Shown here piece after piece: positions 8,368 through 9,252 of a stretch of DNA of 9,344 nucleotides. Below the pieces are notes generated by a model. That model had not been told where the DNA came from. It searched no databases and saw only the letters and a list, made by a program, of their open reading frames with translations. The position numbers were made by a program, and so were the translations under genes. Source of the stretch: a virus (lineage: Duplodnaviria; Heunggongvirae; Uroviricota; Caudoviricetes); the IMG/VR virus record IMGVR_UViG_2651869749_000001. One strand, written 5' to 3'. The stretch's first letter is position 1. Every line of letters begins with the position of its first letter.

Positions 8368-9010
8368 TGGCAGCAAATACCGAAATATTTGGGTAGTTGG
8401 CGATCTGCACGGATGCTACACGAACCTGATGAACAAACTGGATACGATTGGATTCGACAACAAAAAAGACCTGCTTATCTCGGTGGGCGATTTGGTTGAT
8501 CGTGGTGCAGAGAACGTAGAATGCCTGGAATTAATCACATTCCCCTGGTTCAGAGCTGTACGTGGAAACCATGAGCAAATGATGATTGATGGCTTATCAG
8601 AGCGTGGAAACGTTAATCACTGGCTGCTTAATGGCGGTGGATGGTTCTTTAATCTCGATTACGACAAAGAAATTCTGGCTAAAGCTCTTGCCCATAAAGC
8701 AGATGAACTTCCGTTAATCATCGAACTGGTGAGCAAAGATAAAAAATATGTCATCTGCCACGCCGATTATCCTTGTGACGAATACGAGTTTGGAAAACCA
8801 GTTGATCATCAGCAGGTAATCTGGAACCGCGAACGAATCAGCAACTCACAAGACGGGATCGTGAAAGAAATCAAAGGTGCGGACACGTTCATCTTTGGTC
8901 ATACGCCAGCAGTGAAACCACTCAAGTTTGCCAACCAGATGTATATCGATACCGGCGCAGTGTTCTGCGGAAACCTCACATTGATTCAGGTACAGGGAGA
9001 AGGCGCATGA
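8345..9010 (+). CDS. ninI: NinI serine/threonine protein phosphatase (221 aa)
   Basis: ATG at 8345 ([25 protein letters not shown]...); metallophosphatase motifs GDLHG, GDLVDRG, GNHE. The track ORF from 8270 is an upstream extension overlapping ninH. Confidence 0.9.
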
Positions 9011-9252
9011 GACTCGAAAGCGTAGCTAAATTTCATTCGCCAAAAAGCCCGATGATGAGCGACTCACCACGGGCCACGGCTTCTGACTCTCTTTCCGGTA
9101 CTGATGTGATGGCTGCTATGGGGATGGCGCAATCACAAGCCGGATTCGGAATGGCTGCATTCTGTGGTAAGCACGAACTCAGCCAGAACGACAAACAAAA
9201 GGCTATCAACTATCTGATGCAATTTGCACACAAGGTATCGGGGAAATACTGA
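9007..9252 (+). pseudogene. Q: Late antiterminator Q, truncated after codon 81 by IS insertion
   Basis: ATG at 9007 overlaps the ninI stop; [81 protein letters not shown] recognised as the N-terminus of lambda Q (about 207 aa). The reading frame ends in the TGA formed by the first bases of the IS terminus at 9250. Confidence 0.85.

Follow-up and report, generated by a model that had tools for sequence, protein, structure and literature searches.

A lambda-type Q gene that ends after 81 codons at the edge of an insertion sequence raises the question of how this late-gene antiterminator was broken, whether the prophage that carried it can still enter lytic growth, and whether the early genes next to it have been kept by selection. 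We addressed this question in a 9,344-nucleotide stretch of Caudoviricetes DNA (IMG/VR record IMGVR_UViG_2651869749_000001; hereafter the window, with position 1 as its first letter) through comparison with related prophages, complete E. coli genomes, draft assemblies, and metagenome collections.

The ORF at positions 9007..9252 of the plus strand reads from ATG through 81 codons to a TGA. Its coding part (Q', codons 1-81; 9007..9249, +) is identical at 243 of 243 nucleotides to the intact Q genes of phages mEpX2 and mEp506 (E=2e-124), and 99.2-99.6% identical to those of HK620, HK633, Sf101, and epsilon34. The 81 encoded residues are residues 1-81 of the phage lambda Q protein in PDB 7UBM (chain Q), and they match the Pfam Antiterm family (PF03589) above the cut-off (E=2e-17). 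In intact Q, the base that follows nt 243 is a C (TAC CGT GG...), whereas the window reads TGAACCGCCCCGGG... at this point, so that the sequence running on from Q nt 243 is TGAACCGCCCCGGGAATCC... The TGA stop (9250..9252, +) corresponds to the first three bases of the IS, and the break lies exactly between positions 9249 and 9250, i.e., between Q nt 243 and 244. The preliminary description of this DNA, in which Q was said to be open for 81 codons and then stopped by a TGA supplied by the IS, is thus exact to the base (243/243 nt on the Q side and 95/95 nt on the IS side). Upstream of the stub the gene order ninG-ninH-ninI-Q is present, and its downstream side is occupied by the IS in which the window ends.

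The position of the break bears directly on function. Solved structures of lambda Q comprise residues 38-207 (4MO1), residues 61-207 (7UBJ-L), and the full-length protein with RNA polymerase (7UBM/N). The main Pfam match of Q spans residues 113-199 and its Cys-rich zinc-ribbon-like match residues 113-152, both past the break. The complete DNA- and RNA polymerase-binding body (residues ~61-207, including the Cys-rich zinc-ribbon region) is absent from the stub, as the ORF ends at residue 81; the missing residues 82-207 comprise this Cys-rich region together with the greater part of the body through which Q binds the Q-binding element and RNA polymerase. A Q protein unable to bind its own DNA site and RNA polymerase does not antiterminate at tR', and loss of Q function blocks late-gene expression in lambda. 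Because the stub is devoid of the DNA- and RNA polymerase-binding body, we treat the Q copy in the window as null, a functional step that we infer from established lambda biology.

The IS that interrupts Q is a copy of IS629/IS1203 (IS3 family). The part of this right-hand copy that lies within the window (9250..9344, +) includes the IRL and the start of orfA (ATG at 9304), and it is identical at 95 of 95 positions (E=1e-41) to IS629/IS1203 copies in O157:H7, O145, and other STEC, which are annotated as "IS3 family transposase" or "IS3-like element IS1203 family transposase"; the variant is 100% identical to copies in both O157:H7 and O145. The terminal inverted repeat (TGAACCGCCCCGGG...) followed by orfA is present, as expected for this element. 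Full-length copies from related loci measure 1310 bp and have the ends TGAACCGCCCCGG...CCGGGGCGGTTCA, and the copies in RefSeq are annotated with a programmed frameshift (orfA/orfB transposase). A second copy is found in inverted orientation at the left end of the window (1..197, -), recognizable as an inverted repeat with positions 9248-9344, and includes the IRL and the first 143 nt of orfA (ATG at 143-141); here too the window ends within the IS. The window holds only the first codons of this left-hand orfA, which in a sibling contig (L004, described below) runs into a 404-aa transposase with HTH_Tnp_1 and rve domains. Both copies have their transposase-proximal end (IRL) toward the phage DNA. 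They differ from each other at 3 of 95 positions and are therefore not recent duplicates of each other.

The left IS insertion point lies 66 bp past the ral stop, within the ral-ea10 intergenic spacer, a remnant of which is retained at 198..263 (target ...ATACACA/GTGCAG, with the break at the slash). Eight relatives are unbroken across this point, beyond which they carry an ea10-like gene, cIII, kil, gam, bet, and exo. An earlier claim that the left arm is cut just beyond ral therefore holds, since positions 1-197 are the reverse complement of an IS end where these eight relatives are continuous.

Between the two IS copies lies a 9.05-kb early region of the lambda imm434 type, in which each of the 19 genes has an open frame of the length expected. 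On the left side, this region carries ral (264..443, -; a 59-aa allele, with a Pfam Ral match in identical products), sieB, encoding superinfection exclusion B (653..1192, +; Pfam SieB, E=1e-29), and the gene for the 107-aa N antiterminator (1193..1516, -; Pfam N36, E=1e-25). These are followed by a 134-aa ORF downstream of cI (1870..2274, -), with no Pfam match and named "repressor protection protein" in the lambda imm434 record (H176), by the cI repressor gene of the 434 immunity type (2271..2903, -; 210 aa; HTH_3 and Peptidase_S24; 99% identical to lambda imm434), and by the 434-type cro gene (3010..3225, +; 71 aa; HTH_3), which also matches lambda imm434. The right side encodes cII (3345..3638, +; Phage_CII in the identical product of L004), replication protein O (3671..4570, +; 299 aa; Phage_rep_O) with the ori iterons at 4019-4105, and replication protein P (4567..5268, +; 233 aa; Phage_lambda_P), followed by ren and the nin region (5265..9010, +), which includes ninB, a dam-type methyltransferase gene, ninE, ninX, ninF, orf89, ninG, ninH, and ninI, all open according to the L004 gene calls, Pfam, and ORF integrity. 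There are four ori iterons within O, each of 20 nt and of the form ATCCCTCAAAACGAGGGAAA. As in phage 434 and lambda imm434, the O, P, ren, nin, and Q genes are of lambda type, and the immunity region (1600-3660) is 98.5-99% identical to that of lambda imm434; unlike in these phages, two IS copies are present, and the nin region contains the dam-type methyltransferase gene and ninX. The Pfam matches, ORF integrity, imm434 match, and iterons bear out the earlier statement that immunity (cI434/cro434), sieB, the ORF downstream of cI, and O/P/ori are intact.

Two genes of this region call for a brief comment. The 59-aa Ral allele ends earlier than the 64-66-aa versions found in two other loci (L005 and L022); it occurs in 811 index blocks, and such a wide distribution indicates a natural variant rather than decay peculiar to this prophage. 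The 134-aa ORF overlaps the cI434 stop and is kept wherever 434-type immunity occurs (L019, L020, and L023-26).

An exact look-up of the 81-aa product identified one true sibling, the 20.4-kb contig L004 of an independent draft assembly (GCA_001266215.1). This contig contains both IS junctions, is 99.98% identical to the window (2 mismatches in 9308 nt), and ends 56 nt into the right IS. On the left it continues for ~10 kb, the sequence covered here stopping 117 nt before the far end of that IS. The Q/IS junction is present in 0 of 5,426 complete E. coli genomes, and exact-pattern scans of the GTDB species representatives, JGI metagenomes, and IMG/VR found none. Three other records (H72, H75, and H79) were considered as sharers of both IS junctions and rejected, as their IS copies sit at other places. 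Since the stub and its neighbors are essentially undiverged from functional phages, and since the junction is missing from the complete genomes and from the GTDB, JGI, and IMG/VR sets, the insertion is, on these sequence comparisons, young and lineage-restricted.

Taken as a whole, the explanation that we consider highly probable is a recent IS629/IS1203 transposition into Q that left a null stub and an IS-bracketed segment. A 1310-bp IS629/IS1203 element would have transposed into Q of a lambda/434-type prophage between nt 243 and 244, with translation of Q now ending at the TGA that opens the IS. The 81-residue product would represent the N-terminal segment alone, with no loading onto RNA polymerase at pR', and the late genes would stay off. 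A second, non-identical copy in the opposite orientation, 66 bp beyond ral, would complete the bracketing of the 9.05-kb immunity-replication-nin segment. The event would be recent, lineage-restricted, and typical of IS629-rich STEC-like E. coli, and the intact neighboring genes would be a sign of youth rather than of selection.

Recent IS629/IS1203 inactivation of a prophage gene is an ordinary and already known kind of event. IS629 is found mostly in prophages (62%), and among STEC phages that are otherwise near-identical it is the chief source of diversity (PMC3271280, PMC4587872). The same element and the same kind of locus are involved in the insertions described in O157:H7/STEC prophages (nu1::IS in Sakai Sp4; roi, lysozyme, and methyltransferase genes in stx2a phages), where, as here, one phage gene is inactivated in a near-identical phage (PMC2669165, PMC4587872, PMC3271280). 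Unlike in those cases, the target in the window is lambda-type Q at nt 243/244, a junction present in no complete genome and in none of the literature searched. The stub also resembles the material of lambda Q-null mutants and of the lambda Q structures (PDB 4MO1, 7UBJ-7UBN), being lambda Q residues 1-81 residue for residue. Unlike the point and amber mutations of the null mutants, however, the lesion is a natural IS truncation that is potentially reversible by excision of the IS.

What lies on the other side of the right IS is less clear-cut: we give about even odds to the 3' half of Q and the late genes following immediately after the IS and to their loss or displacement through an IS-mediated rearrangement. 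In a simple insertion, a 3-4 bp target-site duplication would flank the element; the far ends of both copies lie outside the window and outside the contig sequence reached. A synthetic query that joined IRR, TAC, and Q from nt 244 onward gave only two-piece matches in complete E. coli genomes, with IS copies located elsewhere near Q. Degenerate IS-to-Q 3' junction patterns gave no match in GTDB representatives, JGI metagenomes, or IMG/VR, and a look-up by Ral for the sequence past the left IS returned only long unrelated contigs. It is quite conceivable that the right IS marks the boundary of an IS-mediated deletion or inversion, with the 3' part of Q, pR'/qut, and the late genes gone or located elsewhere and the 9-kb segment stranded as a remnant. 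In keeping with this, the segment has an IS copy at each side in inverted orientation, a pair whose homologous recombination would flip the DNA between them; the collections searched yielded neither a contig nor a genome with IRR+(A)TAC+CGTGG...; and the C-terminal Q homologues that were screened for IS-derived N-termini included no IS-to-Q 3' chimera. Moreover, matching 3-4 bp duplications are kept by just 21 of 47 IS629 copies in O157 genomes, more than half thus being without them (PMC3271280), and deletions of up to >40 kb have been described beside IS629 during IEE-dependent excision (PMC9943667). Given these few matching duplications and IS629-adjacent deletions, a rearrangement boundary is about as likely as a simple insertion. 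The missing 3' junction is nevertheless weak evidence for a rearrangement, because the 5' junction itself is known from just a few short-read drafts in which the contigs end at the IS, and both inner junctions would fit two simple insertions equally well.

The preliminary description also read the segment as a domesticated immunity/exclusion module. Under such a reading, selection in the host would retain cI434, sieB, the cI-linked ORF, and ori, the lytic functions having been discarded. It is true that the immunity, exclusion, and replication genes all remain intact in a prophage with a broken Q and a severed left arm, and that non-lysing lysogens are expected to be favored (PMC6379469). On the other hand, the DNA has not diverged since the insertion (100% identity of the stub to functional Q, 99% of the immunity region to imm434), the nin genes are just as intact although they bring no obvious benefit to the host, and IS629 insertions are reversible (PMC9397093). 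All 19 of the 19 retained genes are intact, including those without obvious host benefit, with essentially no divergence on which selection could be measured; nor was the same lesion seen across diverged host lineages, as the junction occurs in 0 of the 5,426 complete genomes and only in near-identical draft contigs. With undiverged DNA and a junction found in no complete genome, intact neighbors are what would be expected from a recent event without selection, and we consider domestication unsupported and improbable.

It is very unlikely that the two IS copies and the intervening DNA form a composite transposon that moves the immunity-replication module. The same type of IS does lie at both sides of the 9-kb segment, but IS3-family elements transpose via an IRL-IRR circle junction, and with the copies inverted and both IRLs facing inward, both outer ends would be IRR, leaving no outer IRL/IRR pair. 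In addition, the two copies are different variants, and the IS-segment-IS unit was found in no other genomic context. An assembly artefact, in which a contig met a repeated IS, is equally hard to credit, for although the window starts and stops inside IS copies, as short-read contigs do, and many other "81-aa Q" records are artefacts of contig ends or N-gaps, unique sequence runs into the IS at a junction 95 nt from the end of the window, and the identical junction, with 56 nt of IS, is shared by an independent assembly.

Those other "81-aa Q" records were rejected as instances of one common IS junction, being either contig ends (some with the wild-type C next) or a scaffold N-gap. Exact Q truncation products of all lengths from 75 to 84 aa exist, in 2-80 contigs each, and this ladder identifies the 81-aa records as artefacts of the search method. 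The N-gap case is scaffold ADIT01000042 (L003:10244-10645), in which the gap falls exactly after Q nt 243 and the sequence resumes at Q nt 67. The gap represents a 177-nt duplicated overlap (an unmerged assembly gap) that mimics an 81-aa Q followed by a second Q ORF.

Returning to the IS629/IS1203 insertion itself, the statement that the prophage is almost certainly unable to run the lytic programme stands in so far as this Q copy is null in cis, but it is overstated in view of IS629 excision, of other Q genes, and of helper prophages. Where IEE is present, IS629 is excised at appreciable frequency (PMC9943667, PMC9397093), and excision is able to restore interrupted genes (PMC9397093). The present case is similar to the systems in which IEE-promoted excision has been described (lacZ::IS reversion; STEC O121:H19), with an IS3-family element within a gene in a STEC-like background; in those systems, either the gene is restored or adjacent DNA is deleted (PMC9397093, PMC9943667). 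Lambda-type Q is present in 1,361 of the 5,426 complete E. coli genomes, at up to four places per genome, so that complementation in trans is possible if the late operon survives. Furthermore, many IS-damaged prophages of O157 Sakai are still induced, packaged, and even transferred with the help of co-resident prophages (PMC2669165). IS629 knockout of Q is probably, then, a reversible way of disabling a prophage: to turn on its late genes, this one would need either excision of the IS or a lambda-type Q provided by a co-resident phage. The loss of Q bears on the predicted inducibility of the strain and on its release of phage-borne cargo, an importance that is local.

Other loci in which lambda-type Q has been rearranged were found during the comparison. 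In many STEC prophages (e.g., L001:17578-19916 and L002:14251-16590), lambda-type Q is reduced to a 72-nt remnant followed by lpxR, ylcG, and a different intact Q. These remnants define a common mosaic boundary at Q nt ~71 and mean that a second Q is possible in the same prophage. An in-frame fusion (P0008; L023-L026) joins cro434 codons 1-39 to Q codons 77-207 in a 170-aa protein with an HTH_3 domain and the Q body. It is located directly downstream of cI434 in a small prophage remnant beside gtr genes, in at least seven contigs that include gut metagenomes, and might be expressed from pR. Finally, in L037:1-3501, an integrase fragment, AlpA, and a Rep-like gene (satellite- or PICI-like) abut a truncated ANT gene just upstream of a nin-Q' fragment; this PICI-like/ANT joint is another novel junction, in a heavily deleted P22-like prophage.

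The one feature of this locus that deserves follow-up is a set of TA-anchored deletions at the motif AAGGTA. The motif (Q nt 226-231; 9232..9237, +, with the TA at 9236-9237) is undamaged in the window, where the IS begins 12 nt further downstream. Elsewhere, ~15 independent one-sided deletions in unrelated lambdoid prophages share AAGG-TA as their fixed end, each running TA-to-TA, of which 8 extend rightward (into lysis, head, and tail genes) and 5-7 leftward (cro, bet, ninG, and others); the loci behind them are L023-L028, L030-L034, L037-L040, L161, and L162. In protein databases, this anchor shows up as chimeras in which Q is joined to unrelated sequences at a single position; the DNA reveals two classes.

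In eight prophages (L030-L033, L037, L038, L161, and L162), Q nt 1-231 (...CACAAGGTA) is joined to late genes, the partners being P22-type gp10-proximal, gp20, and gp16 sequences, the 3' end of lambda H, an E217-type tail gene, a holin gene, and a terminase gene. In five others (L023-26, L027/L039, L028, L034, and L040), early genes are joined to Q from nt 230 onward (TATCGGGG...), and these partners are cro, bet, ninG, a gene of the Ead region, and a site in the lar region. The left products extend through A231 and the right ones begin with T230, which gives an overlap of TA. Two further TA-anchored cases (P0002 and P0003) are known from proteins alone, and closed genomes hold three of the junctions. 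The parental partner has a TA at the crossover in 11 of 11 recoverable cases, with a total homology of 2-5 nt. Q contains exactly two copies of AAGGTA, and break-points also cluster at the second of them (nt 280-285; P0045, P0046, and P0013). Although Q contains 27 TA dinucleotides, 9 of the 15 N-terminal Q chimeras end right after an AAGGTA copy.

Several candidate sources of this anchor were considered and set aside. [quoted passage not shown] A lost TA-duplicating element is unlikely: neither an element at the AAGG-TA site nor a TA-TA footprint was found, and the partners carry their own TA, so the TA at the joins is not a duplication. An origin through IS629 and IEE fits poorly, given that IS629 duplications are 3-4 bp, that an IS629 copy in a second prophage (L029) lies 1 nt off, and that the second AAGGTA copy behaves alike. 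For an invertase (hix/gix-like) half-site, the predicted crossover is 4 nt away from the observed one.

The geometry of the joins suggests one of two events: a 2-nt staggered site-specific cut whose 3' ends are preserved, or a TA-to-TA exchange. No description of TA-anchored Q deletions, and no enzyme or mechanism for them, was found in the literature searched. We tentatively propose, as a possibility rather than a firm claim, that lambda-type Q carries a sequence-specific break-and-join hot spot, which may be served by a dedicated TA-specific nuclease, recombinase, or transposase. If true, this would represent an undescribed mechanism that repeatedly disables lambdoid prophages and a defined route to a permanently non-lytic state; if a specific enzyme is involved, rather than chance and selection, its target sequence would be directly testable.

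The IS629 copy in L029 (L029:5001-5309) is a second, independent insertion of this element in Q. It lies after nt 232, in the opposite orientation to the copy after nt 243 in the window, and its junction is in none of the complete genomes. The two sites are 1 nt (L029) and 12 nt (window) from the first TA and flank a small palindrome, GGTAT-N7-ATACC; with a 4-bp duplication (GTAT/ATAC), they would mirror each other. Both insertions might be exploiting the same TA feature. A deletion junction between ninB and ninF (NinB'/'NinF; L162:1192-1200) has 9 nt of homology and corresponds to an ordinary short-homology deletion, in contrast with the TA-only Q join of the same prophage.
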